A DNA stretch of 32,000 nt from Mycolicibacterium smegmatis (GCF_001457595.1 NZ_LN831039.1:6300001-6332000), one strand, 5' to 3'. Shown: positions 12,531 through 32,000, counted from the first letter of the stretch. The notes: a model not told the origin generated them from the sequence alone. Program-made: numbers and translations.

Positions 12531-13495
12531 CACCGCACCGCCAGCGACAACCCGAAATCCCCGGCCGGATCGGTCCACCAATGCGTCTGCCGCAGACCGG
12601 CTTCCGCCAGCTCGGCGACGACGTTCTCGGGACGGAACTTGCAGGACACCTCGGTGAGCATCTCCTCACCCGCGGCGAAGTCGACCTCCAGGTCCAGTGC
12701 CGCGACGCGGACATGCTGTGCGGTGCGGGCACGCAACCACATCTCGATGCGTTCCTCGTCGGAGTTCCACTTCGCGACATGCTCGAACGCGTCGAGGTCG
12801 AAATCGGCGGACAGTTCGCGGTTCACCACGGCCAGCACGTTGCGGTTGAACGCCGCGGTGACGCCGGCCGCGTCGTCGTACGCGCGCACCAACCGGCCGG
12901 TGTCCTTCACCAGATCGGTGCCCAGCAGCAGGCTGTCGCCCGGCTGCAGCGTGTCCGCGAGAGTACTGAGGAACTCCGCGCGGGGCGCGGGTGTCAGGTT
13001 GCCGATGGTCGACCCGAGGAACACCACGAGCCGCCGTCCGACATGCGGGATCTTGCCCAGATGCTCCTCGAAATCGCCACATACGGCGTCGATCTCGATA
13101 CCCGGGTACTCCGCGCCGATTGCCGCTCCGGCCGAACGCAGCACGCCCGCGTCGACGTCGAACGGGATGAAGCGGCGCAGCAGCTCGGCGTCGCGCATGG
13201 CGTCGAGCAGCATGCGGGTTTTCTCCGATGTCCCACTGCCCAGTTCCACCAGGGTGTCGGCACCCGCGGCCGAGATGATCTCCGCCGACCGGGTCCGCAG
13301 GATCTGCGCCTCGGTTCGGGTGGGGTAATACTCGGGGAGCCGGGTGATCTGATCGAACAGATCACTGCCGACGGCGTCGTAGAACCACTTGGGCGGCAGA
13401 CTCTTCTGTGTCGCGGTGAGACCCGCGCGGACGTCACGGCGCAGCGCTTCGGCGGCCGAGTCGGCTGCCAGGTAGTTGGCCAGTGAGAGCGTCAT
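12530..13495 (-). CDS. egtD: L-histidine N-alpha-methyltransferase
   Basis: 321 aa from the ATG at 13495 ([22 protein letters not shown]...LPPKWFYD...[11 protein letters not shown]). It matches EgtD in sequence and in operon position. Confidence 0.9.
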
Positions 13496-13506
13496 GGGGC
13501 GTCCTT

Positions 13507-14190
13507 TCACAGGGGTGTCACGACGACGTGGGCGTCGCGGACGTCGACGAGGTGCCGGTCCGGGATGTCCGACCAGCCGGGATCGTCGTCGTAGGGTTCG
13601 CTCGCGAGGACGACGCCGTCGGGGCGGCGCAGGACCGACAGCGTGTCCCCCCAGGTGGTGGCGAGCAGCCGGGAACCGTTGGCGGCCAGGATGTTCAACC
13701 GCGCGTTCGGGTCGAGTTCGCCGACCTCGGCGATGGTGGCGCCGAGCGCGTCGAGGCCACGGGAGAAGATGAGCGCCGCGAGGATCGCGCTGTCCACCGT
13801 GGACTCGGCGGCACCGGTCAACGGGAGCACCCCGCGGTCGACCAGGCCGTTGTGCGACAGCAGCCACTGCCCGTCGCTGAACGGCGCCGACGCCGACGGT
13901 TCGATGGGCATACCGATGGTGGCCGAGCGCACCGCGGCCACCACACAGCGACTGCGCAGCGCTGGTGCCACCGACGCGAACGACGCATCACCCCACAGCG
14001 GTTTGTCGCTGCGCCAGCGGCGGGCCACTCCATCGTCGTCGAAAAACCCTGCGCCCCAACCGTCGGCGTTCATCAGACCGTGCTTCTGTCGTCGCGGTGC
14101 GTAGGACTGCACCAGCAGTCCCTGCGGCGGGTCGAGCACCAGGTCGGCCAACGACCGCGGCGCGCCCAGCCACGCCACATGCCGGCACAT
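13507..14190 (-). CDS. egtC: Class II (Ntn) glutamine amidotransferase, gamma-glutamyl-hercynylcysteine sulfoxide hydrolase
   Basis: 227 aa beginning MCRHVAWLG, with the Cys2 nucleophile. The ATG at 14190 overlaps the egtB TGA (TGATG). Confidence 0.85.
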
Positions 14191-15476
14191 CAGACGTCCC
14201 AGGCCAGGCGGACACCCGAGAAGATCTGCCGCCGGATCGGGTGGTCCCAGTTGCGGAAGCTGGGCCGCAGGATTCCCGGTGCCACGGCCCATGACCCGCC
14301 GCGCAGCACGCGGTAGTCACCGGATGTGGTGCCCTCGAAGAACGGCGTGCTGTAGCGCTCGTAGATCATCGGCGTGAAACCGGGCCACGGCCGCAGCGGC
14401 GAGGAGGTCCACTCCCACACGTCGCCCAGCATCTGCTCGGCGCCATAGGCCGACGCCCCCGCCGGGTAGGCCCCGACCGGCGCCGGGCGGCGTGCGTCAC
14501 CGCCGAGGTTGGCCAGCGCCGCGCTGGGTTGTGCTGAGCCCCAGGGGAACCGGCGCCGAGCACCGGCGACCGGATCCCACGCGCAGGCCTTCTCCCATTC
14601 GATCTCGGTGGGCAACCGCGCACCGGCCCACGCCGCGTAGGCCTCGGCTTCGAAGAACGTCACGTGCTGCACGGGTTCGTCACCCGGGATCTCCTCGATG
14701 TGCCCGAACCGGGTGCGGGTGCCGTCGGGGTTCCAGAACTGCGGGGCCACCAGGCCCGCCTCCTGGCGGTGCGCCCAGCCGCGTGGCGACCACCAGCGCG
14801 GCTCGTCGTAGCCGCCGTCGTCGATGAACTCGCGCCATTCGGCGTTGGTGACGGGCACGCGGCCGATCCGGAACGACGGGATGTCCACGACGTGGGCGGG
14901 CCGTTCGTTGTCCAGCGAGTGCGGTTCGGTCAGCGCGTCGACCCCGAGCACGAACGGGCCGCCCGGCACCAGCACCGACGTGCCTGCCACGCCTGGCCTG
15001 CCCGTGGGCAGGGGAGTTCCGGTGTCGAGCAGGGGCGGGCCTTCGCGCAGGTTGAGTGCCTGCAGCATGGTCTCGTCGTGCTGGTTCTCGTGGCTGATCA
15101 CCAGCGCGAACCGGAAGCCCGGATCGTCCTCGGGCAGCGTGTCGAGGGTGTCGAGCGCCTTGGCCCGCACCGTCGCGCAGTAGGCGCGCGCATCCGAAGG
15201 CGGCAGCAACGGGAGGTTGACCCGGCTGGCGCGTGAGTGCTCGAACGCGTCGTAGAGCCGGTCCACCTCGGGTGCGAGCATGCCGGGGCGGTCGGGGTTG
15301 CCGTCGCGCAGCAGCCACAGTTCTTCCTGCTGGCCGATGTGCGCGAGGTCCCATACGAGCGGGCTCATCAGCGGGTTGTACTGGCGATGCAGTTCCGCGT
15401 CGTCGAACTCCACGAGCCGCAACGTGCGTTCGCGGGCCCGGGCCAGCTCGTCGGCCAGTGTCTCGCGTGCGATCAA
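14190..15476 (-). CDS. egtB: Hercynine oxygenase / sulfoxide synthase (DinB_2 plus FGE-sulfatase domains)
   Basis: 428 aa. The N-terminal part is DinB-like ([22 protein letters not shown]). The C-terminal part is FGE-like ([23 protein letters not shown]). Its TTG start overlaps the egtA TGA (TTGA at 15473-15476). Confidence 0.9.
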
Positions 15477-16750
15477 AGCTCACCTTTCGCCAGTTCCCGG
15501 ACGGCGGCGGCGATTCCGCGTGCCACCACCCGGTCCGAGAAGTCGTCGGCGGGACTACGCCTCTGCTGGACCGAACGCATCAACAGCGTCATCGATTCCT
15601 CGAGTTCGGCCGGTGCCCGCTCCGCCGCGAGCCGCACGCACGTCAGGGCCGCGGTGTGCAGATGTCGGTCCGTCAGGCCCATCCGCGCGGCGCGGTCCCA
15701 GGCTGTGGCGACTGGACGTGTTGCCTCAGCGGCACTTTCGGCCGCGACAGGATCGTCGAGCAATGTGGTGAGGGTGAACACAGCGGCCGGCCACAGCGCG
15801 TCGGGCACGCTGTCGAGATAGCGGATCTCCAGCCAGCGGCGCGGCCGCACCGGCGGGAACAGCGTCGTCAGGTGATAGTCCAGGTCGGCCTCGGTCGGTC
15901 TGCGTCCACCCAGCACGGCGCGCCCGTCGGCCCAGTCCGCGAACGGCACCCAGTTGGTCACGGGCACCGCGTCCGGAGAGTTCACCAGCATCACCGGCGC
16001 GCGCAGCGCGTAGCGCGCCCATTCGGAGGCGGGATCGTCGCCGTCCACACCCAGCACCGGCCCGCACCGCGCCGAGTCGAGCTGCCCCCACACGCGTTGC
16101 CGCGTCGAACACCAGCCCGTGAACTGTCCACCCAGCATCGGTGAGTTGGCGGTGATCGCGATCATCGTGGGCCCCAGCGCATGTGCCAACCGGACCCGCT
16201 CGGCCCAGCCGTCGCGCGGACCGGCATCCAGGTTGACCTGCACCGACGCGGTTGCCGTCATCATCGCGGCGCCGGCCTCGGCGGTACCGCTCGCGGTGAA
16301 GAACTGTTCCATGGCCGAGTAGCGCGCACCCGGGTTGACCCGGCGGGTCGGCCGCAGCGGATCGGTGCCGAGCAGCACCAGGCCAAGATTCCTGCGGGCG
16401 AACTCCGCACGCAGCACAGCACGGTCGGCCTGCAGCGCGGCGACCGCGGCGAGCGGACCGTCGTACGGCGGACCGGACAGTTCGACCGCGCCGCCGGGTT
16501 CCACGGTGATCCGGCTGCCACCGGGCAGTGGCGGTACGTCCGCGATCACGGCGGACAGTTCGTCCCAGCTCGGTCGCCGCGTCGGATTGCTCAGGTCGAA
16601 ACAGTGCGCCTCGATCTCCAGGCCCACCCGGCCGATCGGACCGTCCTGCAGGCTGTTGGCACCGATGTGGGCGGCGGCCTGCTCCGCACTGGTGAACTCG
16701 ACCGGAACCGCACAGCCAGAATCACTTCTGGCGGGTAAGGCCATGACCAA
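15473..16750 (-). CDS. egtA: Glutamate-cysteine ligase (GCS2 family)
   Basis: About 423-425 aa (RVGLEIEAH..., ASVQVNLD). It is the first gene of the egt operon. The start is either TTG 16750 or ATG 16744, downstream of GGGAGGG. Confidence 0.85.
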
Positions 16751-16860
16751 CCGTCCCTCCCAGTCCCCTGCCGGACCGTCTGGTTCTTCTCCATCTTCCA
16801 GATCAGACCGACAAAGTTCGCGTCTTTATTCGTGACAGGTCGGTGACGGTTGCGGGCCGG

Positions 16861-17514
16861 TTATTGCCCCAGGGTGTTCTGCATGGCCCCGGCCAGCACG
16901 TTGACCGCGGGGCCTCCGTTGCCGGATTGGCACACTTTTGCCTGCAGCAGAACGTTTTCGCGCTTCCGGGTGGTGTTGAAACACCGCCGGTCGGTGGCCG
17001 CCTCCTGCTTGACCCAGTCGGCGTCGGCCGGGCCCGCCGGCCCGCCGGTGAACGTCCACACCTCGGTGTGGAAGTTGTCCAGATGCATCGCCGTGGTCTG
17101 CCCCGCGCATCCGACGGTGCGGTCGACGACGCGATGGTAGGCGCGGTCGGCCGCGTCGACGGTGGCGAACACCCCGACGGCCTGCTTCACCAGGTGTGTG
17201 GCGTCGCCCGCCGCGGTCTGGGCAGTGGCACCGCCGAAGGACGCCAGGTCGGGGTCGTTGAACACCTCGGGCAGGCCGATGTCGGCCCAGTTGTTGCACA
17301 CGGGGTTGTCGACGGAGAACGCCTGGAACGGCGCGGTGAACTCGGACTCCCAGCGGATGGGGGCGCCGACGATGTTGCTCACCGAACCCTTCGGCATGAC
17401 GGCGTAGGACACCACACCGGGATCCGACGGCCGGGCCGCAGCAGGTGCCACTGACGCCAGGACAAGTCCAGCCACCCCGAGACTCACAGTCACGGCACGC
17501 ATGGGCTCGATCAT
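16861..17514 (-). CDS. Secreted protein, possibly a PknH_C-type extracellular sensor domain
   Basis: The internal ATG at 17514 gives a signal peptide (MIEPMRAVTVSLGVAGLVLASVAPAAA/RP) and four Cys in the mature part. The family call is from memory only. Confidence 0.6.
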   Translation of the reverse strand: MIEPMRAVTVSLGVAGLVLASVAPAAARPSDPGVVSYAVMPKGSVSNIVGAPIRWESEFTAPFQAFSVDNPVCNNWADIGLPEVFNDPDLASFGGATAQTAAGDATHLVKQAVGVFATVDAADRAYHRVVDRTVGCAGQTTAMHLDNFHTEVWTFTGGPAGPADADWVKQEAATDRRCFNTTRKRENVLLQAKVCQSGNGGPAVNVLAGAMQNTLGQ

Positions 17515-17519
17515 GCCAT

Positions 17520-18038
17520 TCAGTACACGGTGCGGGTGCAGTAGGTGCGTGCCGGTGACGGGTACGGCCAGGCGAACTGACCGGCGTCGTCGCCGCATGC
17601 GGCCTGGTCACGGACGTCGAGCCGCCGCGTCACCTGGACCAGCAGGCCGGGCCTGGCGGGTTCGGCGCAGTCGGCCAGTTCGACCATGCCCGCGGGCATG
17701 CCGAGTTCGTAGCAGTGGTCGGCGACGAGGTTCGGCACCAGGCACAGCCGCGCCGTCGACGGATCGGCGAATTCGGTGGACAGCTGCTGGTATTCGCGGC
17801 TGGGGCACGCGCCGGTCTCGTCGGCGACGGCGCCCACGGTGTAGCTGGGGTCGGCGCTGCAGTCCACCTCTGTGGCACGTACGGGATCGGGTCCGTCAGG
17901 CGTCGTCGCCGGGATGCTCACGCAGTCACCCACCGAGAACACCATCACCGCACCACGTTCGGGGCCCGGTTGCCCACACGCCGGGGCGAGCAGTACCGGC
18001 GCTGCGATCAGCGCAAGCATGAGCCGATGGCGCGTCAT
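17520..18038 (-). CDS. Cys-rich secreted protein or lipoprotein
   Basis: The ATG at 18038 gives MTRHRLMLALIAAPVLLAPAC, a lipobox-like signal. The mature part has 9 Cys. The stop codon lies 5 nt before the next gene. Confidence 0.65.
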   Translation of the reverse strand: MTRHRLMLALIAAPVLLAPACGQPGPERGAVMVFSVGDCVSIPATTPDGPDPVRATEVDCSADPSYTVGAVADETGACPSREYQQLSTEFADPSTARLCLVPNLVADHCYELGMPAGMVELADCAEPARPGLLVQVTRRLDVRDQAACGDDAGQFAWPYPSPARTYCTRTVY

Positions 18039-18103
18039 GGTTAGGCAGAATGTCACGATTCGCCGGACCCCGCCCAGGGCTTCAACCGAACTGAAATGAA
18101 GAG

Positions 18104-18132
18104 CCCCGGCCACCGAGGGGTCGTGGCCGGGG
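18104..18132 (-). terminator. Intrinsic terminator downstream of the fur-family gene
   Basis: A perfect 10-bp stem CCCCGGCCAC/GTGGCCGGGG with a 9-nt loop, 26 nt after the stop codon. T-rich tracts follow on both strands (minus strand: CTCTTCATTTCAGTT). Confidence 0.7.
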
Positions 18133-18157
18133 CATTTCTTCGGGCTGCAGATGTGGT

Positions 18158-18622
18158 CTAGATGGTGCTGCTCTGCGGTCTGGTCGTTGTGGCGGAGTCG
18201 TGCTGGCAATCAGCGCAAACTCCCCAGTACACGACCTCTGCCTCGTCGATCGCGAAGCCCGCCAGATCGGAGGGCTCCAGGCAGGGCGCCTCGCCGACCG
18301 CGCAGTCGACGTCGGCCACCCGGCCGCACACCCGGCACACCAGGTGATGGTGGTTGTCGCCGGTCCTGGTCTCGTAGCGGGCCGACGATCCGGCGGGTTC
18401 GATGCGCCGCACCAGGCCCGCGTTGACGCACGCGCGCAGCACGTCGTACACCGCCTGAGTCGACACCGACCCGAGGTTCTGGCGAACTGCCATGGCAACG
18501 TCGTCTGCAGTCGAGTGTGGCTGTTCGGCCAGGACTTCGAGCACCGCGACCCTGGGTGCAGTGACGCGCAACCCGGAGGCCCGCAAAAGAGCCTTGGGAT
18601 CGTGGTCATGCACTGTGGTCAC
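18158..18622 (-). CDS. furA: Fur-family regulator of the FurA (peroxide-responsive) type
   Basis: 154 aa with a GTG start. The product (LRVTAPRVAVLEVL..., QAVYDVL, GDNHHHLVCRVCGRVADVDCAVGEAPCL, DEAEVVYWGVCADC) closely resembles remembered M. tuberculosis FurA. Confidence 0.8.
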   Translation of the reverse strand: MTTVHDHDPKALLRASGLRVTAPRVAVLEVLAEQPHSTADDVAMAVRQNLGSVSTQAVYDVLRACVNAGLVRRIEPAGSSARYETRTGDNHHHLVCRVCGRVADVDCAVGEAPCLEPSDLAGFAIDEAEVVYWGVCADCQHDSATTTRPQSSTI

Positions 18623-18663
18623 AAAACCCAGTATGCGCGCATTTTCTGGAATGAGTCAAAAAG
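18623..18663 (-). promoter_or_regulatory. furA promoter (TTGACT-N18-CATACT) overlapping an AT-rich FurA-box-like operator; predicted leaderless transcript
   Basis: The minus strand reads CTTTTTGACTCATTCCAGAAAATGCGCGCATACTGGGTTTT-GTG. The -10 element ends 7 nt before the GTG. TTGACTCATTCCAGAAAA resembles the remembered Mtb pfurA operator. Confidence 0.5.
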
Positions 18664-18674
18664 AGTGAGTGTGA

Positions 18675-19145
18675 TTATGGTCGCGCGGGTGCTGTGGTCG
18701 GCGTCTCTGAACGATCCGGGGCCTGCGGACCACGGAATTCACCGCGCTCGGCCGGTGCACCTCCCGGGCCGAACATGCCGCCACCAGGCCTCATGTGGCC
18801 GGGACCCATGCCGGGCATCATCGGCGGCGGGCCGCCACGGTGGAACATCATGATCTCCGGGCGGTCATGGCCGCGGTGATGATGCCCCGGGCCGGAGTTC
18901 TTGCCCAGCACGAAGCCGGTGCCGAACACCACAGCGACGATGAACACGACGCCCGCGACGATGCCGACCCACGCGGCGGCCTGTACGACACGGCTGTGCC
19001 GGCGGGGTGCCTCGGCGGGCGCGACGGGTACTGCTGCCGGCGGGGGCGCAACCGGCGGTGGCGCCACCGGCCCCGAGGTCGCGGTGGGCGTCTCGGCAGG
19101 CGTGCCGACCGGAGTGGTCGGATGGTCAGACGGTGTTTCACTCAT
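18675..19145 (-). CDS. Pro-rich single-pass membrane protein with a His/Met-rich C-terminal tail
   Basis: 156 aa. The N-terminal part is rich in Pro, Thr and Ala. The TM helix is AAWVGIVAGVVFIVAVVFGTGFVL. The tail is GHHHRGHDRPEIMMFHRGGPPPMMPGMGPGHMRPGGGMFGPGG. Confidence 0.7.
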   Translation of the reverse strand: MSETPSDHPTTPVGTPAETPTATSGPVAPPPVAPPPAAVPVAPAEAPRRHSRVVQAAAWVGIVAGVVFIVAVVFGTGFVLGKNSGPGHHHRGHDRPEIMMFHRGGPPPMMPGMGPGHMRPGGGMFGPGGAPAERGEFRGPQAPDRSETPTTAPARP

Positions 19146-19221
19146 GCCACGAGCATGCGTCCGCTGCTCAGGTGGTGATCAAGAATCGGCTATGAATTGG
19201 CTATGAACGGGCGTCCTCGCT

Positions 19222-19261
19222 CACCGTGCGTAACGCAGTGGCGGCCACGAGCGCGTTTTTC
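19222..19261. repeat. Left 40 bp of minisatellite unit A (interrupted by the ISL3 element)
   Basis: CACCGTGCGTAACGCAGTGGCGGCCACGAGCGCGTTTTTC is one mismatch away from 20779-20818. Confidence 0.85.
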
Positions 19262-20719
19262 GGCTCTTCGCAGTTAGCAGTGGCGTTGGTGCCGGCTGGG
19301 TGTGACTCGTCGTGATCGGCGAGTGCAGGCCCACCGTACTCGGCGGCGTTGGTTCTCAGGATTGCGGAAGCCGAAGGCGATGCGCCCGACGTGTTTGACG
19401 ATGCGGTTGTAGCCTTCGGTGCGGGCGTTGGACAGGCCGGTCTGCAGGGCGGCGATGATGGGGGCCTGCCAGGTCTCGATGGTGCGGGCCAGTCGGATCA
19501 CTTCGGGCACTGTGCAGGCCGCGCAGAAACGGTAGAACCGGTCCAGGGCGGTCGTGATCTCGTAGCGCAACCCGCCGCGGTCGGCGCAGGAAAGCAGGTC
19601 GCGCAGCAGTTCTTTGGCGATCCAGGCCGCGGCGATGTCCTGGTTGGGGTCGGCGGAGAGCAGCTTGGCGAACAACGTGGCGCGTTGGTCTGCGGTGAGC
19701 CGCTCGGAGCCGCGCAGCAGGCGGCGGCGGTTGATCCACTCGACATCGGCCTTGCGGCCGCGCCGGCCCCGTTGGGTCCAGGTGACCCGGCGGCGCACCG
19801 CATCAACCATGTCGTTGGCTTTCTTGACCAGGTGGAACCGGTCGGCGATCAGGATCGCGTGCGGCAGTGCTTCGCGAGCCACCCGGGCATAGGCCGGGGA
19901 CAAATCGATGGCTACGTGGGTGATTGCGGCCCGCCAGTCAGGGTCCTGGCCAGCGAGCCAGTCGATCACTGCCGCCGAGGTGCGGCCATTGACCTGGCCA
20001 AGGAGGCCTTGATCGCCGGTGATGTCGACCAGTCCGGTGTCCCAGCGATCCACCCATACCCGCCGCCCGAGTACCGGGTTGTGTTCCCATTTGGCCTTAC
20101 CGCGTCGGGTCTCGTCGATGCCGAGCACCGCCACCGGCGCCAGCTCGCCGGCCAGGGCGTCCTCGGCGGTGGCGATGACTTCGTCGTGCACGGTGTGCCA
20201 GCCGCAGCGGTACTGCCCGGCCACCGCGGCCACCGAACGGTCCTCGTCGAGCACCGCAGTGGCCATCGTCGCCTTGGCCCGCGGTGTTACCCGCGCCCGC
20301 GCCGGGATTCCGGGCACCGACTCGGTGAACACCTTGCGCGTACAGACCGTGCTGGGGCACAACCACTTTCGCTTACGCCAGCGCAGTATCGGGCGGTCCG
20401 AACCCACCACAACGTCGCGGGGTCCGGTCTGTACCCAGCCTTTCGACCTGGTGGAGCGTTCCCCGCATTCGGGGCAGATCCCGACCCACTGGGGGGCGGT
20501 GAGCACCTGCACCAACCGGGTGCCGTCCTCGAGGCGCTGCACCGATTCGACGACCACACCGTCGAGATCGAGCAGCAGTGAACTACCGTCAACCATGGTC
20601 CGCGTTCCTTGTCCTGGATGCCTGAAGAACACCCAGCTCACAGGGGCGCGGACCCCTAATCAATCACCGACACGACACAACGTCGGACAACACCAGACCC
20701 CTATCAAGTGCGAAGAGCC
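19262..20719 (-). mobile_element. ISL3-family insertion sequence, 1458 bp, apparently intact
   Basis: The terminal inverted repeats are GGCTCTTCGCA... at 19262 and ...TGCGAAGAGCC at 20719, imperfect out to about 29 bp. The element is flanked by an exact 8-bp direct repeat CGTTTTTC (19254-19261 and 20720-20727). Confidence 0.9.
19274..20596 (-). CDS. ISL3-family transposase
   Basis: The ATG at 20596 is preceded by AAGGAA and gives about 440 aa. There is an N-terminal zinc-finger region (CPECGERS...) and the motifs LGIDETRRGK and ARTEGYNRIVKHVGRIAFGFRN. The stop codon lies inside the terminal IR. Confidence 0.9.
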   Translation of the reverse strand: MVDGSSLLLDLDGVVVESVQRLEDGTRLVQVLTAPQWVGICPECGERSTRSKGWVQTGPRDVVVGSDRPILRWRKRKWLCPSTVCTRKVFTESVPGIPARARVTPRAKATMATAVLDEDRSVAAVAGQYRCGWHTVHDEVIATAEDALAGELAPVAVLGIDETRRGKAKWEHNPVLGRRVWVDRWDTGLVDITGDQGLLGQVNGRTSAAVIDWLAGQDPDWRAAITHVAIDLSPAYARVAREALPHAILIADRFHLVKKANDMVDAVRRRVTWTQRGRRGRKADVEWINRRRLLRGSERLTADQRATLFAKLLSADPNQDIAAAWIAKELLRDLLSCADRGGLRYEITTALDRFYRFCAACTVPEVIRLARTIETWQAPIIAALQTGLSNARTEGYNRIVKHVGRIAFGFRNPENQRRRVRWACTRRSRRVTPSRHQRHC

Positions 20720-20853
20720 CGTTTTTCCGCCCTCACGTCACAAACGGCGCACCCGCCGACCACACACCCGCACACCCGCACCGTGCGTAACGCAGTGGCG
20801 GCCACGAGCGCGATTTTCCGCCCTCACGTCACAAACGGCACACCTGCCGACCA
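20720..20853. repeat. Second TSD copy, right 35 bp of minisatellite unit A, (CACACCCG)x2 spacer, and complete 75-bp unit B
   Basis: Restored unit A (19222-19261 plus 20728-20762) matches unit B (20779-20853) at 72 of 75 positions. The spacer at 20763-20778 is a tandem 8-mer. Confidence 0.85.
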
Positions 20854-21151
20854 GGCAGGCTCGATGTCCAGATTCCACTCGTGTGTGACCGTACGCAGAG
20901 CTTCGGGTGGTAGATCGCTCAGTGGCATAACTTCCCCGATCAGTTCGCCAGTACCCGCCCTTCGAAGACCGCGTCGCAGTGCTGGCCATCCAGGCGCTGA
21001 TTACAGCGAGATTGGGCCGCAGGTCTGCGAGCACCTCGCGCAGGCACGTAACATCGGGCCAGGTAGAGCGTCCGGAGACGCCGGTGCCACGTCATCGAAG
21101 CGATGGTTGAACGCGTAGAGTTTCAGCGGACAAACAACACCGCAAACGGCG

Positions 21152-21185
21152 TCACTCCCAGGGCTTGAGTGGATTCACCGCGAAC
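21152..21185 (-). pseudogene. Displaced 3'-terminal fragment of a DUF4185 gene (encodes ...FAVNPLKPWE-stop)
   Basis: It matches 26201-26234, the true 3' end of the DUF4185 gene (...YAVNPLKPWE-stop), at 28 of 34 nt. Three mismatches are synonymous third positions. Similarity stops after 11 codons. Confidence 0.7.
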
Positions 21186-21280
21186 CCGTTCGTGCACGTT
21201 TGGCAACGTTGACTCGAATTGAATGAGTCCATCAGCCCATGTCAACAGGGTTGGCGGTGTTGGCGGGCACCGAGGCTTAG

Positions 21281-22938
21281 CCTCGATCCACCGATGAATT
21301 GGCTGGTCGCAGGGTGTCGTGACGAGGAAAGTGCCTTCTGAGCTGTGATGATGAGTGTTCTCTAGGCACTTATCGGCACAACTTCGAAAGGCACTTCCGG
21401 TGAAAGTGTCCCATAGGTTCGCTGCGTCGTCGGCGGTCTTCGATGATGCCCATCTCGTGTCGTGCGCCGGTCTGGTGCCGGTAATGACGCTGGCCACCCA
21501 GACCGGGCTGTCACAGTTGCTGGCCGACAAGGTTCGTATCAGCGAACCACGGATCAAGTCCGGGTCGGCCAACCCGTCGCCGAAGCTGCTCACCGTGGTC
21601 GCCGGAATGTGCGCCGGCGCCGACAGCATTGATGACCTCGACCTCGTGCGTGGCGGCGGGATGAAGACGCTCTTCGATGGGGTCTATGCACCATCGACGA
21701 TCGGAACACTGTTGCGGGAGTTCACCTTCGGACACGCCCGGCAGTTGGAGTCGGTCCTGCGTCATCATCTGGCCGCACTCTGTGCGCGGGTGGACCTGCT
21801 GCCCGGATCCGACACGGGGGCGTTCATCGACATCGACTCACTGCTGCGCCCGGTCTATGGCCACGCCAAACAGGGTGCCTCCTACGGGCATACCAAGATC
21901 GCTGGTAAGCAGGTTCTGCGTAAAGGGCTCTCCCCGTTGGCGACGACGATCAGCACCCCCGGAGCGGCGCCGGTGATCGCCGGGATGCGGCTGCGCGCCG
22001 GTAAGACCAGTTCCGGGAAGGGTGCGGGCCGCATGGTCGCCCAAGCCATCGCCACCGCCCGCGCCGCCGGCGTGCGCGGGCAACTGCTGGTGCGTGGCGA
22101 TTCGTCCTACGGCACCCGGTCGGTGGTGGGCGCCTGCCGAGCCCACAATGCGCACTTCTCGGTGGTGATGACCCGCAATACCGCGGTTGATCGGGCCATC
22201 AGTTCGATCGACGAGCAGGCCTGGGAGCCGGTCAACTATCCCGGTGCAGTGCGTGATCCCGACACCGGTGACTGGATTTCTGATGCCGAGGTCGCCGAGG
22301 TCAGCTACACCGCCTTCGCCTCTACCAAAGATCGGTTCACCGCGCGGTTGGTGGTGCGGCGAGTCAAAGACGCGAGATTTCGGGACGCGCTGTTCCCGGT
22401 GTGGCGGTATCACCCGTTCTTCACCAACACAGACTTGCCGACCGCCGAGGCTGACATCACCCACCGCCAGCACGCGATCATCGAAACCGTCTTCGCCGAT
22501 CTGATCGACGGACCCCTGGCCCACATGCCCTCAGGACAGTTCGGTGCCAACAGTGCGTGGGTGTTGTGCGCGGCGATCGCGCACAACCTGCTGCGCGCCG
22601 CCGGCGTGCTCGCAGGAGGTGCCCACGTGGTTGCCCGCGGCGCGACGCTGCGCCGCAAGATCGTCAACATTCCCGCCCGTCTGGCCCGACCCCAGCGTCG
22701 ACCGATCCTGCACCTCCCCGAGCACTGGCCCTGGACAGAGCACTGGCTCACGTTGTGGCGCAACACCATCGGATACAGCCCACCGCTACCGGCAACAACC
22801 TGACCAACGCGCCGAACAGGCCCAACCGGAGCACACAGGAAAAGCTGGGCAGACCAGCAACTACCGCATGCCCGCAACACCGAACGCAGCAGAAACCACA
22901 CACGGACACCTCAAGGAGGGCCGCTCCACGGATTCAGG
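21281..22938 (+). mobile_element. IS1380-family insertion sequence, about 1.66 kb
   Basis: The ends are CCTCGATCCACCGATG... and ...GCTCCACGGATTCAGG, an imperfect IR of about 10/16 that begins CCT. The direct repeat CTTAG lies at 21276-21280 and 22939-22943 and extends to AGGCTTAG, so the exact boundary is ambiguous by 3 nt. Confidence 0.65.
21355..22803 (+). CDS. IS1380-family transposase
   Basis: A 482-aa ORF (DDAHLVSCAGLVPVMTLA..., IDIDSLLRPVYGHAKQGASYGHTKIAGKQ, LVRGDSSYG, ITHRQHAIIETVFADL). The start may be GTG 21355 or GTG 21400. Confidence 0.85.
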   Translation: MFSRHLSAQLRKALPVKVSHRFAASSAVFDDAHLVSCAGLVPVMTLATQTGLSQLLADKVRISEPRIKSGSANPSPKLLTVVAGMCAGADSIDDLDLVRGGGMKTLFDGVYAPSTIGTLLREFTFGHARQLESVLRHHLAALCARVDLLPGSDTGAFIDIDSLLRPVYGHAKQGASYGHTKIAGKQVLRKGLSPLATTISTPGAAPVIAGMRLRAGKTSSGKGAGRMVAQAIATARAAGVRGQLLVRGDSSYGTRSVVGACRAHNAHFSVVMTRNTAVDRAISSIDEQAWEPVNYPGAVRDPDTGDWISDAEVAEVSYTAFASTKDRFTARLVVRRVKDARFRDALFPVWRYHPFFTNTDLPTAEADITHRQHAIIETVFADLIDGPLAHMPSGQFGANSAWVLCAAIAHNLLRAAGVLAGGAHVVARGATLRRKIVNIPARLARPQRRPILHLPEHWPWTEHWLTLWRNTIGYSPPLPATT

Positions 22939-22987
22939 CTTAGTTAGGCTACTGGGGACGCACTGCGGACGGAGGCCGAGCGCTCCT

Positions 22988-23752
22988 TTAAGGACAAGCT
23001 CCGCCGGTCACCGGGCAGATTCGTGGGTCGTAGTCTCGCTTCAAACGAGTCTTGATGAACTCGGCGTTGTTCCCATACCCCGGCGAGAGCCAGCGGCCGA
23101 CGACCATCACACTCACGTATCTAGCCCCCGCGGCTCGTAGCGTAAGCGCGGCCGACTGAGTTCTGGATCCGGTTGTCCATGTGTCATCGAGCACCAAGAT
23201 GTGCTTGCCGCTCAAGTCTTGCGGCGGTGCGATAACGAACTGGGTGCCTGCGACGATGCGATTGCTAGTCGCCGTCGCCGCGGGCACGAGGCTCAGCTGA
23301 TCGCTGATGGCGTTCATTTCTCTTGTGATCGCGGCGAATGGATGGACGCCGGGGCGATTGCTCAGTGAGGGAACCATCACCCGTCTGTACACAGGTTGCC
23401 CAACACGTTTTTCAATACAGTTCTGGTGCAACATGATTCCGAGGTAGAGCGCGCGCCGGATAACCATGCTGTGCTGCTGGCGCGCTACTTCGCTGACGTC
23501 GTCTTTGTAGTGGCGCAGCAGGATCCCGGACTGGGTTCGCTCGGCCGCGTATGTGAGAGGAGCTACGAGGTCCGCTATGCCGGCCGTGTATTGGTGCTGG
23601 TTGCACCGGTAGCAGCGGTCGTAGTCATCGACCGGTGTGCAGCAGACTGCGCATGTGATACGCGTTTCCCGGATCACATTCCGGAGATAGCCGCCAGCCT
23701 GCTGTACGAGTAGATGCTCGTTGTGGACGACTGGATCCCTCGTTCTGGTCAA
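22988..23752 (-). CDS. ComF-like phosphoribosyltransferase with an N-terminal CxxC-x9-CxxC zinc finger
   Basis: 254 aa. The zinc finger is CAVCCTPVDDYDRCYRC. The PRPP-binding loop is HILVLDDTWTTGSRTQSAALTLRAAGA. There is a Cys-containing tail (RICPVTGGACP). The TTG start overlaps the stop codon of the upstream DprA-like gene (TTGA at 23749-23752). Local GC is lower than in the core genes. Confidence 0.8.
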   Translation of the reverse strand: MTRTRDPVVHNEHLLVQQAGGYLRNVIRETRITCAVCCTPVDDYDRCYRCNQHQYTAGIADLVAPLTYAAERTQSGILLRHYKDDVSEVARQQHSMVIRRALYLGIMLHQNCIEKRVGQPVYRRVMVPSLSNRPGVHPFAAITREMNAISDQLSLVPAATATSNRIVAGTQFVIAPPQDLSGKHILVLDDTWTTGSRTQSAALTLRAAGARYVSVMVVGRWLSPGYGNNAEFIKTRLKRDYDPRICPVTGGACP

Positions 23753-24786
23753 CGTCCGTCAGGCAGTCCCGCCAACGGCGCCAAGACGCCGAGTGAGTCG
23801 TCCTCGTCCTGGTTTACGACCTGCTTGACGATGTCCATAACCTCGGCGGTGCTTCCCGCGACGTAAACGCCTGGCCGGTCGCGCATTTCGCGTCCCCACT
23901 TCGTCGCGTTCACCACAATGTCGGTCAGGATGACGGGGCGGCCGTGTTCAACAGCCACGCGCGCCTGGATTCGTGTGCCACTGTGTTCACTGGCTTCGAC
24001 GATGATCGACGCGCGACCCAGGCCGGACATAGTGACGTTGCGCATCGGGAACGACTGTTTTGTTGGCGGTGCGTCCGGAAAGAACTGAGATACCAGCGCA
24101 CCGGCTGCCGCAACCCGGTCGTGGAGCTCCCGGTGGATTGCCGGGTAGACACGGTTGATGCCCGTGCCGATCACGCCGATCGGCCGTCCGCCTGCTCGCA
24201 GCGTCGCTTCGTGTGCGGCGCCATCGATACCATCTGCAAGTCCGGATATGACCGAAATTCCCCGTTCCGCAAGGCCTTCCGCAACATTCGCGGCAATGGA
24301 CAGGCCCCGCCGTGTCGCGCGTCGTGAACCGACGACTGACACCCCGCGCTCGTCGGGGCGGAGGACGCCTTTTACGAACAGCATCGGCGGCATCTGATGG
24401 ATACCGCGCAGCGCAAATGGATACTCTTCGTCCAGCACCGTCAGCAGGTCGAAGTCTTTGGACGATTCCCACTCGATTAGCTGCTTCCACGCGACCTGGA
24501 ACTGCAGTTCTGATTCGTCACGGCTCAGGTCACCGTCGAGAGCGAGCGTGAGCAGCGGGGGGTGGATGTCCTGCCACACCGCTAGGGCGGAACCACGCAG
24601 AGACACCTCGGAGGCGATCGTGGACCACGAGGTCTTACCCGCGCGTTCGCCCAGCATCGGCGGGCGCTCATCCAGAAGAGCCAGAAGCGCGGCCCGTTCC
24701 TCGTCGGCGAATCTGTCGCCCATGCGTCGTAGCTTAGATCCGCCGTCCGGGGATGGCAGCACATCGGGGCCGTTTCGGAAGCCCAT
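23749..24786 (-). CDS. DprA/Smf-like (SLOG Rossmann-fold) protein
   Basis: The ATG at 24786 is preceded by GAGGTGGTGA and gives 345 aa. DprA core motifs are VSVVGSRRATRRG, VISGLADGIDGAAHEATL, IGVIGTGINRVYP, FPMRNVTMSGL, IIVEASEHSGT and GRPV. A longer ORF reaches 24822. Confidence 0.8.
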   Translation of the reverse strand: MGFRNGPDVLPSPDGGSKLRRMGDRFADEERAALLALLDERPPMLGERAGKTSWSTIASEVSLRGSALAVWQDIHPPLLTLALDGDLSRDESELQFQVAWKQLIEWESSKDFDLLTVLDEEYPFALRGIHQMPPMLFVKGVLRPDERGVSVVGSRRATRRGLSIAANVAEGLAERGISVISGLADGIDGAAHEATLRAGGRPIGVIGTGINRVYPAIHRELHDRVAAAGALVSQFFPDAPPTKQSFPMRNVTMSGLGRASIIVEASEHSGTRIQARVAVEHGRPVILTDIVVNATKWGREMRDRPGVYVAGSTAEVMDIVKQVVNQDEDDSLGVLAPLAGLPDGR

Positions 24787-24944
24787 CTGCGTCACCACCT
24801 CATTTCCGCAGGTCAATTGCACTGTCTAGATGTTACTGTCACCCACCGACACGCCGAGCGGTTAATGCCCTCGCGTCGGACAGCCCAGGATAGTCGCCAC
24901 GGGCTGGGGGACGCGCCGCCGGACTGTCAGAAAGGGTGATGCGA

Positions 24945-25241
24945 ATGACCATAAACGTCTATTGCGATCATGAAGGACGAAGCCCGAGGTTCACGTTCCC
25001 GAAAGTTACTGAGGACGGCGAGGCTTCGCCCGAGATCACGCGTTGGCGGCTTGATGGCAGATCGGTCGCGGCAGACACACCGGGCGCAAGACGCAGTTAC
25101 ACGCTGGCTTGCCCGGTTTGTCAGTCGAACTACCGGTTCGGCGAGGACAAGCTGATTCCCGCTCTCATTCGGCTTCGCGAGGTTGGGCAGCGCGAGATCA
25201 GCATCCAGAACTTGCAACACGCCCTCAGTCGCTATACCTGA
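24945..25241 (+). CDS. Small hypothetical protein with a putative zinc ribbon (CxH...CxxC)
   Basis: 98 aa from ATG 24945, with AAGGGTGA upstream. The ORF opens at GTG 24936. VYCDHEG ... LACPVCQ are the putative metal ligands. GC3 is about 68% in this frame. It is divergent from the DprA-like gene. I recognise no family. Confidence 0.5.
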   Translation: MTINVYCDHEGRSPRFTFPKVTEDGEASPEITRWRLDGRSVAADTPGARRSYTLACPVCQSNYRFGEDKLIPALIRLREVGQREISIQNLQHALSRYT

Positions 25242-25331
25242 CGGTTCTATGGTGAAACCATCCGAGGTTGACTCAGACGGAAGCCCCACGAATGAGCCAG
25301 ACGCGAATCGCCGTGCCGGTGTCGAGGACCG

Positions 25332-26192
25332 TTGGAACAAGACGATCCTCGCGATCGGCCACGCACAGAGCTCATCAACGGGCGGCAACTAGTGAACGAA
25401 CGTGACCAGGAAGACGTGTTGCGCGGCACCTTCGATCAACTGGACGAATGGCTGAGGCTGGGAGCAAAAGCCTTCGTTCCGGTGCCCGGAAGCGAACTGC
25501 ACATGGACGATCAAGACTGGCCGTGGATGCCCATCTCTCAACTAGCTCATGTCGGCCTGCAAGCTGCAGCCGACCACCTCGATGCAGTGCGTTTGCATCT
25601 CAAATCGCGCAAACTGTTCGCTGTCGCCGATCTGACGCTCAGCCGGTCAGCGCTCATCGGCGCATCGGCGGCAGTGTGGTTGCTAGCACCCGACGAGCGG
25701 ACGGAACGCCTCAAGCGGGCCCGAACCTTGGCTTCCTATGCCGCGAAGCATCACACGCAATATCTGATCGCCTTACACCGGTTGTCACCGGACCACGAGG
25801 CCACCAAACGCGTTGGCGAGCATGCTGCTATGCGGAAAGCGGAGCTCGACGCGAAGCGTGCAGCCCTGGGCGAACGCACTAAACTCGACACCACAAGGAT
25901 GATCAGCGACGCTGCTGCTGCGGTATTTGCCGCAGATATTGCCGCCGAGGCCGACTTGGAGTGGCAGTCGGGGTCAGGCGCGGCTCATGGCCTCGCCTGG
26001 TGCCTTCTCGGTGCACCCTCGACGGTGCAAGCGGGCCCGGTGGACAATTCCGGAATGACAGAGTTCCATGCCTCGGGTTCGATCGGTCGGATAGCGAATA
26101 GCTACATGGCCGCATTCCACTTGTGCAAGCACGGCTGGTCGCTGCTAAAACGCCGCAACTCTGTTGCGGACGTCCTGCGGACGGAAGGTTGA
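25332..26192 (+). CDS. Hypothetical, predicted mostly alpha-helical protein of unknown family (266-286 aa)
   Basis: It is the only long ORF in a lower-GC segment. The start is uncertain (TTG 25332, GTG 25392 or ATG 25503). The segment LSRSALIGASAAVWLLAPDE weakly recalls AbiV/DUF5677-type helical proteins. The stop codon lies 8 nt from the convergent DUF4185 stop codon. Confidence 0.55.
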   Translation: MEQDDPRDRPRTELINGRQLVNERDQEDVLRGTFDQLDEWLRLGAKAFVPVPGSELHMDDQDWPWMPISQLAHVGLQAAADHLDAVRLHLKSRKLFAVADLTLSRSALIGASAAVWLLAPDERTERLKRARTLASYAAKHHTQYLIALHRLSPDHEATKRVGEHAAMRKAELDAKRAALGERTKLDTTRMISDAAAAVFAADIAAEADLEWQSGSGAAHGLAWCLLGAPSTVQAGPVDNSGMTEFHASGSIGRIANSYMAAFHLCKHGWSLLKRRNSVADVLRTEG

Positions 26193-26200
26193 AACACAGC

Positions 26201-27307
26201 CTACTCCCACGGCTTGAGGGGGTTCACCGCGTACTGGATCACGCGGTAGGGCGTGCCGCCGCGTGGCCGGGTGTTCCACTGGCTGATGAAGACGCGGACC
26301 TCGTCGAGTGTCGAGGCCGGTGAGATGTAACCGCCATATGGCTGCGCGAGCCGGTTCACCTCCGGCGGCGGCAGGGTCTCGGCCGGGTCGGGCCAGTCGC
26401 TGGCATAGACCACGGTCGTCACGGGCACGGTGCCCAACTGTGTCGGGTCGTCGGCCACACGCATCTCCATGTTGCCGGTCGTGGCGTTGAAATATGACAG
26501 CACCGCCTTGCCGTCGATCAGGCGAATGCTCATCTCCCCCACGCGATCTGGCCACAGCGCAGTCGCCGGCTCACCCCAGCGCCCGGACGCCGAGGACCAG
26601 CCCTGCCAGGCCGCACGGTCGGTGAAGTCCTGCGGCGGTACGCGGTACAGGAACACCGGTCCGCTGCGGTCGAAGTTGTTGGCGACGATGTACACCCATC
26701 CGCGAGGTGACTCGGGGGTGGGGATCGGGTCGTAGTACCCGCTGACTTGCGACTGGTTCCCGCCCAGGTACGACGCCTCGCGCGCCGAACCGGGCACGGT
26801 GGGCCAACCGCTCTTGGCCGCATCGGCTTTCACCAGGCGCGAGGTCTGGGGCGTCAGATCCTTCGTGACGGTCACCATCATGTAGTTCTCGCGGTTGATC
26901 GACACCACCCCGGCGGGAAGCTGGGAACTGCCGGGCGGGGTCGGATCGGCCAGCAGCGGCTTGTCGACGCCGGAGACGCCGTTGTAGCGGATACCGGCCG
27001 GGTCGTCGATCGAGTCGGATTCGACGTGCAGCGCGATCGGCGAGTACCAGCCGCCGAATCCGACGGCCTGGCCTGCGAAGCTGTCGCCGCACACCTGCAG
27101 CACGCGGCTGGGGAACTCCATGAACTCGCACAGGTCGGTGGCGCCGATGCCGTAGTCACCGGTCGGTGTGCCGGTGCCGGCACTCGGCCCGATGCGCAGC
27201 ACCTGCCCAGGCACGAGCCCCGTGTCGGCGTGCGCGAGCCCCGCCGAAATGGCATTCCAGCAGAGAAAGATCGAGACGACGCCTGCTGGAATGCGGTTTC
27301 GGCGCAA
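26201..27307 (-). CDS. Secreted DUF4185-family protein (glycoside-hydrolase-like; Rv3707c-type)
   Basis: 368 aa with a TTG start 11 nt after the asd stop codon. The signal peptide is RRNRIPAGVVSIFLCWNAISAGLAHA/DT. The family call comes from remembered ask-asd-Rv3707c synteny and motifs (CGDSF, WVYIVANNF). Confidence 0.65.
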   Translation of the reverse strand: MRRNRIPAGVVSIFLCWNAISAGLAHADTGLVPGQVLRIGPSAGTGTPTGDYGIGATDLCEFMEFPSRVLQVCGDSFAGQAVGFGGWYSPIALHVESDSIDDPAGIRYNGVSGVDKPLLADPTPPGSSQLPAGVVSINRENYMMVTVTKDLTPQTSRLVKADAAKSGWPTVPGSAREASYLGGNQSQVSGYYDPIPTPESPRGWVYIVANNFDRSGPVFLYRVPPQDFTDRAAWQGWSSASGRWGEPATALWPDRVGEMSIRLIDGKAVLSYFNATTGNMEMRVADDPTQLGTVPVTTVVYASDWPDPAETLPPPEVNRLAQPYGGYISPASTLDEVRVFISQWNTRPRGGTPYRVIQYAVNPLKPWE

Positions 27308-27318
27308 CGGGGTTCAGG

Positions 27319-29626
<2,308 letters not shown>

Positions 29627-31842: not shown

Positions 31843-32000
31843 ATGACCTCTGATCTCGCCACACTCGCCGAGCAGTCGGGCACCAAGTTCATCCTCGCGT
31901 TGTTCGTCGACCTGCGCGGAAAGCCTTGCGCCAAGCTGGTTCCCGTCGAGGCCATCGACATGCTGGCCACCGAGGGCGTCGGCTTCGCCGGCTACGCCGT
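31843..32000 (+). CDS. Glutamine synthetase-like protein, N-terminal part (3' end outside the window)
   Basis: The ATG at 31843 opens a frame that runs to the window end. The product MTSDLATLAEQSGTKFILALFVDLRGKPCAKLVPVEAIDMLATEGVGFAGYA has the typical GS N-terminal beta-grasp. Its position downstream of amt matches the M. smegmatis amt1-glnT arrangement as I remember it. Confidence 0.6.
   Translation, partial: MTSDLATLAEQSGTKFILALFVDLRGKPCAKLVPVEAIDMLATEGVGFAGYA

Follow-up and report, generated by a model that had tools for sequence, protein, structure and literature searches.

The 32,000-nt stretch of Mycolicibacterium smegmatis DNA analyzed here (GCF_001457595.1, NZ_LN831039.1:6300001-6332000; hereafter the window) holds, at positions 21152–26233, what is very probably the relic of a prophage-like integrative element, brought into the final codons of a DUF4185 gene by a lambda-type tyrosine integrase. 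A preliminary description of the sequence had pointed out that a short duplicate of the gene terminus brackets this segment, and had read the two copies as the left and right attachment junctions (attL and attR) of an inserted element. That reading is now supported by the empty sites of related genomes, by an integrase lineage tied to this site, by an intact 12.2-kb element, and by four other genomes in which the same junction occurs.

The target gene occupies 26201..27307 on the minus strand and belongs to the DUF4185/GH183 family (Pfam PF13810, E 8e-58), for which an endo-D-arabinofuranase function has been reported (PMC10115798). On its upstream side it lies beside asd (27319..28359), after which comes ask, and the same DUF4185-asd-ask-leuA order is found in four long contigs from other mycobacteria (L085–L088), where asd, ask and leuA lie beyond DUF4185. 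With both the DUF4185 domain and the asd-ask neighborhood present, synteny and the published description of the family (PMC10115798) suggest that the target is the Rv3707c (AraH2)-type orthologue. The copy at 26201 is, as proposed, the true end of this gene, and its last ten codons and stop, read on the minus strand from 26233 to 26201, are TAC GCG GTG AAC CCC CTC AAG CCG TGG GAG TAG (YAVNPLKPWE and stop). The second copy, read on the same strand from 21184 to 21152, is TTC GCG GTG AAT CCA CTC AAG CCC TGG GAG TGA (FAVNPLKPWE and stop). Reading base by base, we find the same 28 of 34 identical nucleotides that had been claimed (27 of 33 within the coding part), and the same pattern of difference, in which three third-position changes are synonymous, one exchanges Tyr and Phe, and the stop is TAG in the one copy vs. 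TGA in the other. Directly upstream the similarity stops abruptly, with RVIQ preceding the gene's own terminus and CTNG preceding the other.

The match is far outside what chance would produce. When both strands of the window are scanned with the 34-mer, the copy at 21152 scores 28 and the runner-up 22, while the best match in 300 dinucleotide-preserving shuffles averages 20.9 (sd 0.8) and peaks at 24, which places the observed value at a z of about 8.7 and rules out a chance origin for the repeat. A listing of repeats in the window gives the terminus pair as 88% identical over 32 nt; the other listed two-copy families of at least ~30 nt are 70–79% identical, excepting two families in the repeats beside an ISL3-family insertion sequence (IS). 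A scan with one genome per species gave 80 Mycolicibacterium and Mycobacterium loci having a DUF4185 orthologue, and the terminal motif (Y/F)AVNP(L/F/I)KP... is kept in all 80, so the fragment at 21152 is a genuine DUF4185 terminus. No third copy, such as tandem elements would leave, was found. The GC content is 57–64% from ~21050 to ~26150 and 66–71% in the flanks.

The edges of the extra DNA can be placed by comparison with relatives in which it is missing. In the closest loci (M. wolinskyi, M. houstonense, M. septicum, M. porcinum and others) the alignment runs from window position 32000 down to 26201–26205 and stops there, so that the right edge of the extra DNA falls exactly at the DUF4185 stop. 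In empty sites (among them L014, L018, L041 and L003) the alignment picks up again at window positions 19207–19213, which in those genomes lie 10–300 bp past the DUF4185 stop. On the left side the native terminus and the next 5 nt are equal to those of the M. wolinskyi empty site (L014), and synteny is back at 19213. The comparison with island-free genomes that had been suggested as a check therefore puts the right boundary precisely at the repeat and matches the native half of the left copy to M. wolinskyi.

The two copies are not simply one native and one foreign; each appears to be a composite. All six differences between them lie outside a shared octamer, CTCAAGCC (26211..26218, minus strand), and when core sequences from unoccupied sites, occupied attL sites and attR sites are aligned with one another, the differences sort into host and element halves. 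In the attL core (26201..26233, minus strand), which comprises the last ten codons and stop of DUF4185, the part to the left of the octamer (TACGCGGTGAACCCC) is native, with the Tyr codon of fortuitum-group orthologues, and the part to the right (GTGGGAGTAG GCTGTGTTTCAACCTTCCGTCCGCAG) is element-supplied; this latter part continues into the arm formed by the tail of an integrase gene and is homologous, position by position, to the element side of attL in L087. In the attR core (21152..21184, minus strand) the arrangement is reversed. To the left of the octamer, (GAACGGG)TTCGCGGTGAATCCA is of element origin and resembles the element copy of L030, while to the right CTGGGAGTGA is the displaced native terminus, followed by CGCCG; together with this flank (CTGGGAGTGACGCCG) it is identical at 15 of 15 positions to the terminus and flank of the M. 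wolinskyi empty site. Strand exchange would thus have taken place inside the octamer, and the junction pairs of L030, L035, L067 and L086/L101 narrow the probable crossover to about YTCAA(G). The bacterial attachment site (attB) that can be reconstructed from these halves would read TAC GCG GTG AAC CCC CTC AAG CCC TGG GAG TGA, and native DNA after its stop would be expected to begin CGCCGTTTGCGG.

The element copy encodes the same peptide as the native terminus, so the sequence of the enzyme is unaltered by integration; at most other occupied sites the DUF4185 protein is shortened and ends in ...KP, KS or KH. A second terminus copy 0.85–1.4 kb downstream of the gene is present in L030, L035 and L067, and in these three, in the window and in L101 the core is preceded at the same nucleotide by AACGG (codons N-G). 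About 25–130 nt upstream of the AACGG junction are conserved among the window, L030, L035 and L067. Neither a tRNA nor a structured RNA was found at the junctions, ARAGORN calling 0 genes and the sole Rfam match (Ms_IGR-7) falling inside the end of an IS1380-family IS.

An integrase lineage that uses this site is found in other mycobacteria. In L029 an intact 417-aa tyrosine integrase (Pfam PF00589, 1e-19; PHROG 1 integrase, 8e-63) is convergent to DUF4185, with its last codons overlapping the DUF4185 stop, and C-terminal fragments of integrases of the same type lie at the same site in L030, L056 and L077. A protein search with the L029 integrase returns more than 3600 homologues, and all six that were looked up, which are 76–86% identical to it and come from M. 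pulveris, Mycobacterium sp. HUMS_1102779, M. alsense and three metagenome contigs, abut a convergent DUF4185 gene. The lineage tied to this exact site is seen in L029, L085–L089, L092 and L097. Related elements share an Xre-type helix-turn-helix (HTH) gene that overlaps the start of the integrase gene, as well as an excisionase-like HTH_17 gene in divergent orientation; some carry a DUF2742 protein and a 600-aa protein; and two (L090, L091) are true prophages with the terminase large subunit TerL, a portal protein and an HK97-type capsid protein. The footprint of an element at the DUF4185 end is seen in ~10% of the 80 species-representative genomes.

In Mycobacterium sp. HUMS_1102779 an intact element of this lineage has both of its junctions (L086 and L101, the latter recovered by walking outward from L086 via a neighboring protein). 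Its attL (TTCGCGGTCAACCCCTTCAAG) and attR (TTCGCGGTCAACCCGTTCAAG) are 12.2 kb apart, the attR core is preceded by GAAACGGG, and the 21-mer CCGTCCGCAGTGCGTCCGCAG stands both 104 nt upstream of that core and in the integrase tail. Within 10 kb of the intact integrases of L029 and L085–L088 no attR was found. Among cultured phages no integrase relative is more than 32% identical; the IMG/VR relatives L081–L084 show no junction, with L081 and L082 ending at the integrase stop and L083 and L084 lacking DUF4185-type sequence; and a pattern scan of viral contigs for arm plus core gave two chance coding matches only and no junction of the type expected of the element's own attachment site (attP).

The DNA flanking the two cores also has the organization of attachment arms. 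The 21-mer CCGTCCGCAGTGCGTCCGCAG holds the octamer GTCCGCAG twice and, allowing up to 4 mismatches, has only two sites in the window, 26184–26164 and 22972–22952. The former lies in the P' arm (26164..26200, minus strand), which coincides with the 3' remnant of an integrase gene fused to the end of a 257-aa gene; its GTCCGCAG-type repeat pair stands ~20 nt from the core, and the position of CCGTCCGCAGTGCGTCCGCAG on this side is the same in L029, L056, L077, L085–L087 and L089. In one of its two copies in the P' arm the octamer is degenerate (GTCCGCAA). The P arm is in two pieces, being interrupted by the IS1380 copy. Its proximal piece (21186..21275, minus strand) ends ...GTCAACGTTGCCAAACGTGCACGAACGG at the core junction, and its distal piece (22944..22987, minus strand), which starts 10 nt past the stop of a ShosT-like gene, carries the second GTCCGCAG pair in the 21-mer at 22952–22972. 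With the IS removed, the 21-mer is ~95 nt from the attR core, compared with 104 nt in L101 and 106 nt in L035, and the P arm is then homologous over its full length to those of L101 (65% over 177 nt), L035 and L030.

In the window, L035 and L101 each arm has a pair of GTCCGCAG, which stands ~20 nt away from the core in the P' arm and ~100 nt away in the P arm; these pairs probably represent arm-type sites to which the integrase binds. From the window and L035 we had predicted, before L101 was known, that an intact element would have the 21-mer in both arms, and L101 bears this out. L5 and lambda are known to carry arm-type sites on each of their two arms. We also considered whether the 21-mer at 22972 might be the tail of a second integrase gene; a P-arm site is preferred, as L035 and the intact element in L101 show it at an equal distance from the core.

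The preliminary description had stated that no integrase is recognizable inside the island. This holds for an intact gene and does not hold for the two ends of one, since the first 57 nt and the C-terminal tail survive. The 5' remnant (MSQTRNRRAGVEDRWNKT; 25292..25348, plus strand) consists of an ATG and 18 codons of a frame that stops after 33 codons, and it reads ATG AGC CAG ACG CGA AAT CGC CGT GCC GGT GTC GAG GAC CGT TGG AAC AAG ACG. Over 38–58 nt its DNA shares 82–90% identity with the beginning of the integrase gene in 13 loci (E down to 2e-14), and in a tblastn comparison 12 of 13 residues match residues 14–26 of the L029 integrase; beyond the remnant, homology to the integrase breaks off. 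At the other end, the ~36 nt of 26164–26200 encode ...ADVLRTEG and stop, the counterpart of the integrase tail ...ADALRTAGEKHPVTSA and stop, and resemble the ADALRTAGE of the L029 integrase. What remains of the gene that should adjoin the junction is thus 57 nt of its 5' end and ~36 nt of its 3' end, and with the integrase reduced to two remnants the copy in the window is a relic of a member of this lineage rather than a functional member.

In place of the integrase body sits a gene for a 257-aa protein (25419..26192, plus strand; 100% identical to P0121 over 257 aa). Its family has 46 homologues in Mycobacterium and Nocardia, all told a conserved hypothetical; the AlphaFold2 model is all-helical with a predicted local distance difference test (pLDDT) score of 94, and no match to the protein was found among solved structures, viral structures or profile libraries. 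A possible intermediate is seen in L097, where a 63%-identical homologue lies between integrase codon ~400 and the integrase tail, with the tail fused on (...TTADALRTEASKTSVD and stop). Members of the family also occur at the edges of other elements, beside their attachment sites (L094–L096).

Taken together, these features suggest the following course of events. The attP of the element would have carried a 33-nt imitation of the DUF4185 end, flanked by a P arm of ~130 nt and by the 3' end of the element's own integrase gene, convergent to DUF4185. Strand exchange within CTCAAGCC would have linked the body of the host gene to the terminus brought by the element, giving attL and a protein that still ends ...YAVNPLKPWE, and would have shifted the native terminus by 5 kb to a place behind the P arm, giving attR. 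Decay may then have proceeded by insertion of the 257-aa accessory gene immediately ahead of the integrase tail (a stage that L097 still shows), deletion of integrase codons 19 to ~400, shrinkage of the interval between the integrase start and the P arm to a small open reading frame (ORF) and a ShosTA-like gene pair, and transposition of the IS1380 copy into the P arm. As this IS splits the left arm, the relic is probably immobile today.

Several observations weigh against this account. Genes for an intact integrase, an excisionase and an Xre-type repressor are absent from the island, and with no intact integrase in it, integration is deduced from the relatives and not from the window's own copy. 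The ~470 bp of non-IS DNA that separate attR from the point where synteny resumes (20720–21151 and 19214–19261) have no counterpart in any of the fetched loci or in the plasmid collection, so that the native identity of the attR flank rests on 15+5 nt. The nearest relative compared is ~83% identical in DNA and is another species. The two cores of the window (27/33) are more diverged than the pairs of L030, L035, L067 and L086, which are perfect or nearly so over 20–24 nt, and no excised circle or attP has been observed.

The preliminary description had also raised the possibility of a satellite-type element mobilized in trans, that is, a working cassette that lacks an integrase and is excised and moved by a related one, and it is true that neither core is missing, that the P' arm is whole and every piece of the P arm persists, that integrases of the lineage are common in mycobacteria, and that relics flanked by attachment sites and without an intact integrase recur in L030, L035 and L067. 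Those relics, however, carry unrelated cargo and so look like products of independent decay rather than copies of a spreading cassette. In the window itself, the 1658-bp IS1380 copy parts the arm-site pair from the attR core, which should upset the geometry of the recombination complex, a P'-arm octamer is degenerate (GTCCGCAA), no excisionase is encoded, and there is no second element to supply the integrase. Nor does the island have integrase, primase, capsid or terminase-small-subunit genes; a satellite like the phage-inducible chromosomal islands would bring its own integrase, replication or packaging-hijack genes, and intact attachment sites. We therefore consider present mobilization in trans quite unlikely. 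Somewhat akin to it is the idea of the DUF4185 terminus as a standing landing pad at which integrase-less cassettes flanked by attachment sites, carrying in this case ShosTA and the 257-aa gene, persist and are reshuffled or re-mobilized by incoming elements with integrases of the same lineage, with the 257-aa family acting as a new exclusion or recombination-control factor rather than a passenger; this is speculative and, in our judgment, unlikely.

A duplicated terminus with an abrupt end of similarity would likewise result from homologous recombination or distributive conjugal transfer, if donor DNA anchored in DUF4185 had been joined illegitimately 11 codons before the recipient's stop without any integrase, and the great variation between species downstream of DUF4185 would suit such a process. 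An illegitimate join would not repeat at one nucleotide, yet five genomes from different species, including one that has an intact element, share the exact junction nucleotide, after AACGG, and the DNA to the left of the junction is a conserved attP arm and not random donor DNA. This origin seems to us very unlikely, though a conjugal or homologous route could have moved the already integrated relic between strains. Least plausible of all, to the point of being nearly negligible, is that 21152–21184 is the last piece of a tandem DUF4185 paralogue wrecked by IS activity. Several DUF4185 paralogues do exist in mycobacteria (PMC10115798), and IS1380 and ISL3 copies are nearby; but no more DUF4185-like coding sequence precedes the fragment in any frame, the 130 nt upstream are the conserved element arm, the intact 5-bp duplication around the IS1380 copy implies that no flanking deletion took place, and no relative has a tandem paralogue at this position. 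Integration by a site-specific integrase followed by decay thus remains the preferred reading of the segment.

The cargo that the relic has kept consists, besides the 257-aa gene, of a putative defense pair and a small ORF. The gene at 23749..24822 (minus strand) encodes a ShosA-like DprA-family protein (PADLOC ShosA, E 2.6e-60; Pfam DNA_processg_A, E 2.9e-56; NCBIfam dprA, 3e-51, which is below the curated cut-off), and overlapping it by 4 nt is a gene (22988..23752, minus strand) for a ShosT-like phosphoribosyltransferase (PRTase), a putative toxin. The latter assignment is weak (PADLOC ShosT, E 4.6e-6; weak NCBIfam PRTase/ComF matches), and a PRTase motif, ILVLDDTWTTG, is visible in the translation. 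The two genes are adjacent, as in a ShosTA pair, and the ShosA-like protein would be the antitoxin half of a defense pair of this type. ShosTA itself is a characterized anti-phage toxin-antitoxin system (PMC11961720, PMC12961424). The nearest match to the ShosA-like gene in the phage collection is gp30 of Gordonia phage Vasanti (67% nt identical), and in this temperate phage (MK359313.1, L102, 24217–25904) the DprA-like gp30 is followed by the PRTase gp29, in the order of the window, with the pair lying between the tail genes and a tyrosine integrase. Lysogenically expressed cargo beside attachment junctions is typical of mycobacterial prophages (PMC8092301). The small ORF (24936..25241, plus strand, 101 aa) has no family match and no homologue in the fetched loci; it is called as a 98-aa gene in an identical Logan contig (L098). 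The stretch from ShosT to DUF4185 has an identical copy in a Logan assembly, where the contig breaks at the IS.

The IS1380-family copy in the P arm (21281..22938, plus strand) has a transposase gene at 21355..22803 (Pfam DDE_Tnp_1_4, PF13701, E 5e-28), terminal inverted repeats CCTCGATCC/CCTGAATCC, and a 5-bp target duplication, CTTAG, at 21276–21280 and 22939–22943; it is 76–83% nt identical to annotated IS1380 copies on Mycolicibacterium, Mycobacterium and Rhodococcus plasmids. The Rfam match mentioned above, the Ms_IGR-7 'sRNA' (RF02469, 111.5 bits, 21282–21399, minus strand), lies exactly at the left end of this IS and antisense to the transposase start at 21355, and for this reason the Rfam family looks like IS-borne sequence rather than a chromosomal sRNA gene. 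Outside the relic, an ISL3-family copy (19262..20719; transposase 19274..20641, Pfam DDE_Tnp_ISL3, 1e-48) has an 8-bp target duplication (19254–19261 and 20720–20727). A composite transposon formed by the two was ruled out, as ISL3 and IS1380 are different families and each copy has its own target duplication.

The ISL3 copy is inserted in a ~91-bp tandem intergenic repeat, with units at 20779–20853 and at 20723–20762 plus 19222–19261. The 432 bp between attR and this IS (20720–21151) are made up of two partial 91-bp units and ~300 bp of unique sequence (20854–21151) without a homologue in the 100 fetched loci or the plasmid collection; they may represent intergenic DNA peculiar to the lineage or what was left by an older insertion. 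Across species the region downstream of DUF4185 is a variable hotspot, with gaps from 70 bp to more than 8 kb, and in many relatives the DUF4185 stop is followed by a motif, TTCATAGCCAATTCATAGCCGATTCTTGATCA (variants include TTCACAGCTGATTCATAGCCAATTCTTGATCAGCACCTCAGCA), which in the window stands at ~19185–19215 on the minus strand and probably represents conserved regulatory sequence for the gene that comes next. Among the related elements, that of L029 holds a candidate ribosomal-peptide biosynthetic cluster (13000–18700; by the look of the translations, radical-SAM-like, two methyltransferase-like and CoA-ligase-like proteins) as well as an ISL3-type transposase, and a DUF6290/Fic toxin-antitoxin-like pair lies directly outside attR of the intact element (L101, 12150–12802).

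These results identify an attachment site in the 3' end of a conserved mycobacterial AraH2-type arabinofuranase gene, together with the integrase lineage that uses it; neither was found in the mycobacterial prophage surveys or the other papers that we searched, and a 2023 survey of the genus gives only tRNA-Lys and tmRNA as attB sites for the fortuitum-smegmatis group. The site and its integrase might be developed into one more integration vector for mycobacterial genetics beside the existing systems, and the relic illustrates that a defense pair can outlast the element that brought it. Mechanistically, the element follows the usual course of tyrosine-integrase elements that restore the 3' end of the gene they enter, and the understanding of integration is unchanged by it.

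The cargo pair resembles published ShosTA and DprA-PRTase systems (PMC11961720, PMC12961424, PMC9122126) in having a DprA-like gene followed by an overlapping PRTase gene on a mobile element. It differs in that the ShosT match covers the PRTase core only, the protein being 254 aa long vs. profiles of 237 and 427 positions, and in that the pair is an actinobacterial variant closest to that of Vasanti, with a predicted function.

As for the attachment site, the elements that use the 3' ends of tRNA and tmRNA genes (L5 and the tRNA-type attB sites of M. abscessus; PMC8092301, PMC10654092) behave similarly, in that attP holds a duplicate of the target's 3' end, attL restores the gene while its original end comes to lie at attR, and the integrase adjoins the attachment site. 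The target in the window differs in being protein-coding; the copy must then preserve only the codons, which explains the synonymous differences between the two termini. Phages with integration-dependent immunity (BPs-type; MabB/C/H/K/N/O; PMC8092301) also have a site that overlaps the 3' coding end of a phage gene at the junction, but the overlapped gene is the repressor there and the integrase in the present lineage, and with the crossover placed beyond the integrase stop no change of the integrase C-terminus would be expected on integration. The closest mycobacterial precedent is attB-8, in the 3' end of MAB_2979, which is used by the MabH prophages of M. abscessus (PMC8092301). There, too, a tyrosine integrase recombines a few codons before the stop of a protein gene, the prophage supplies C-terminal residues in place of the native ones, and the core is shorter than at tRNA sites. 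The two systems differ in target gene and in integrase lineage, and further in that the copy in the window is a relic without a working integrase and that its terminus restores the native peptide exactly (PLKPWE and stop).

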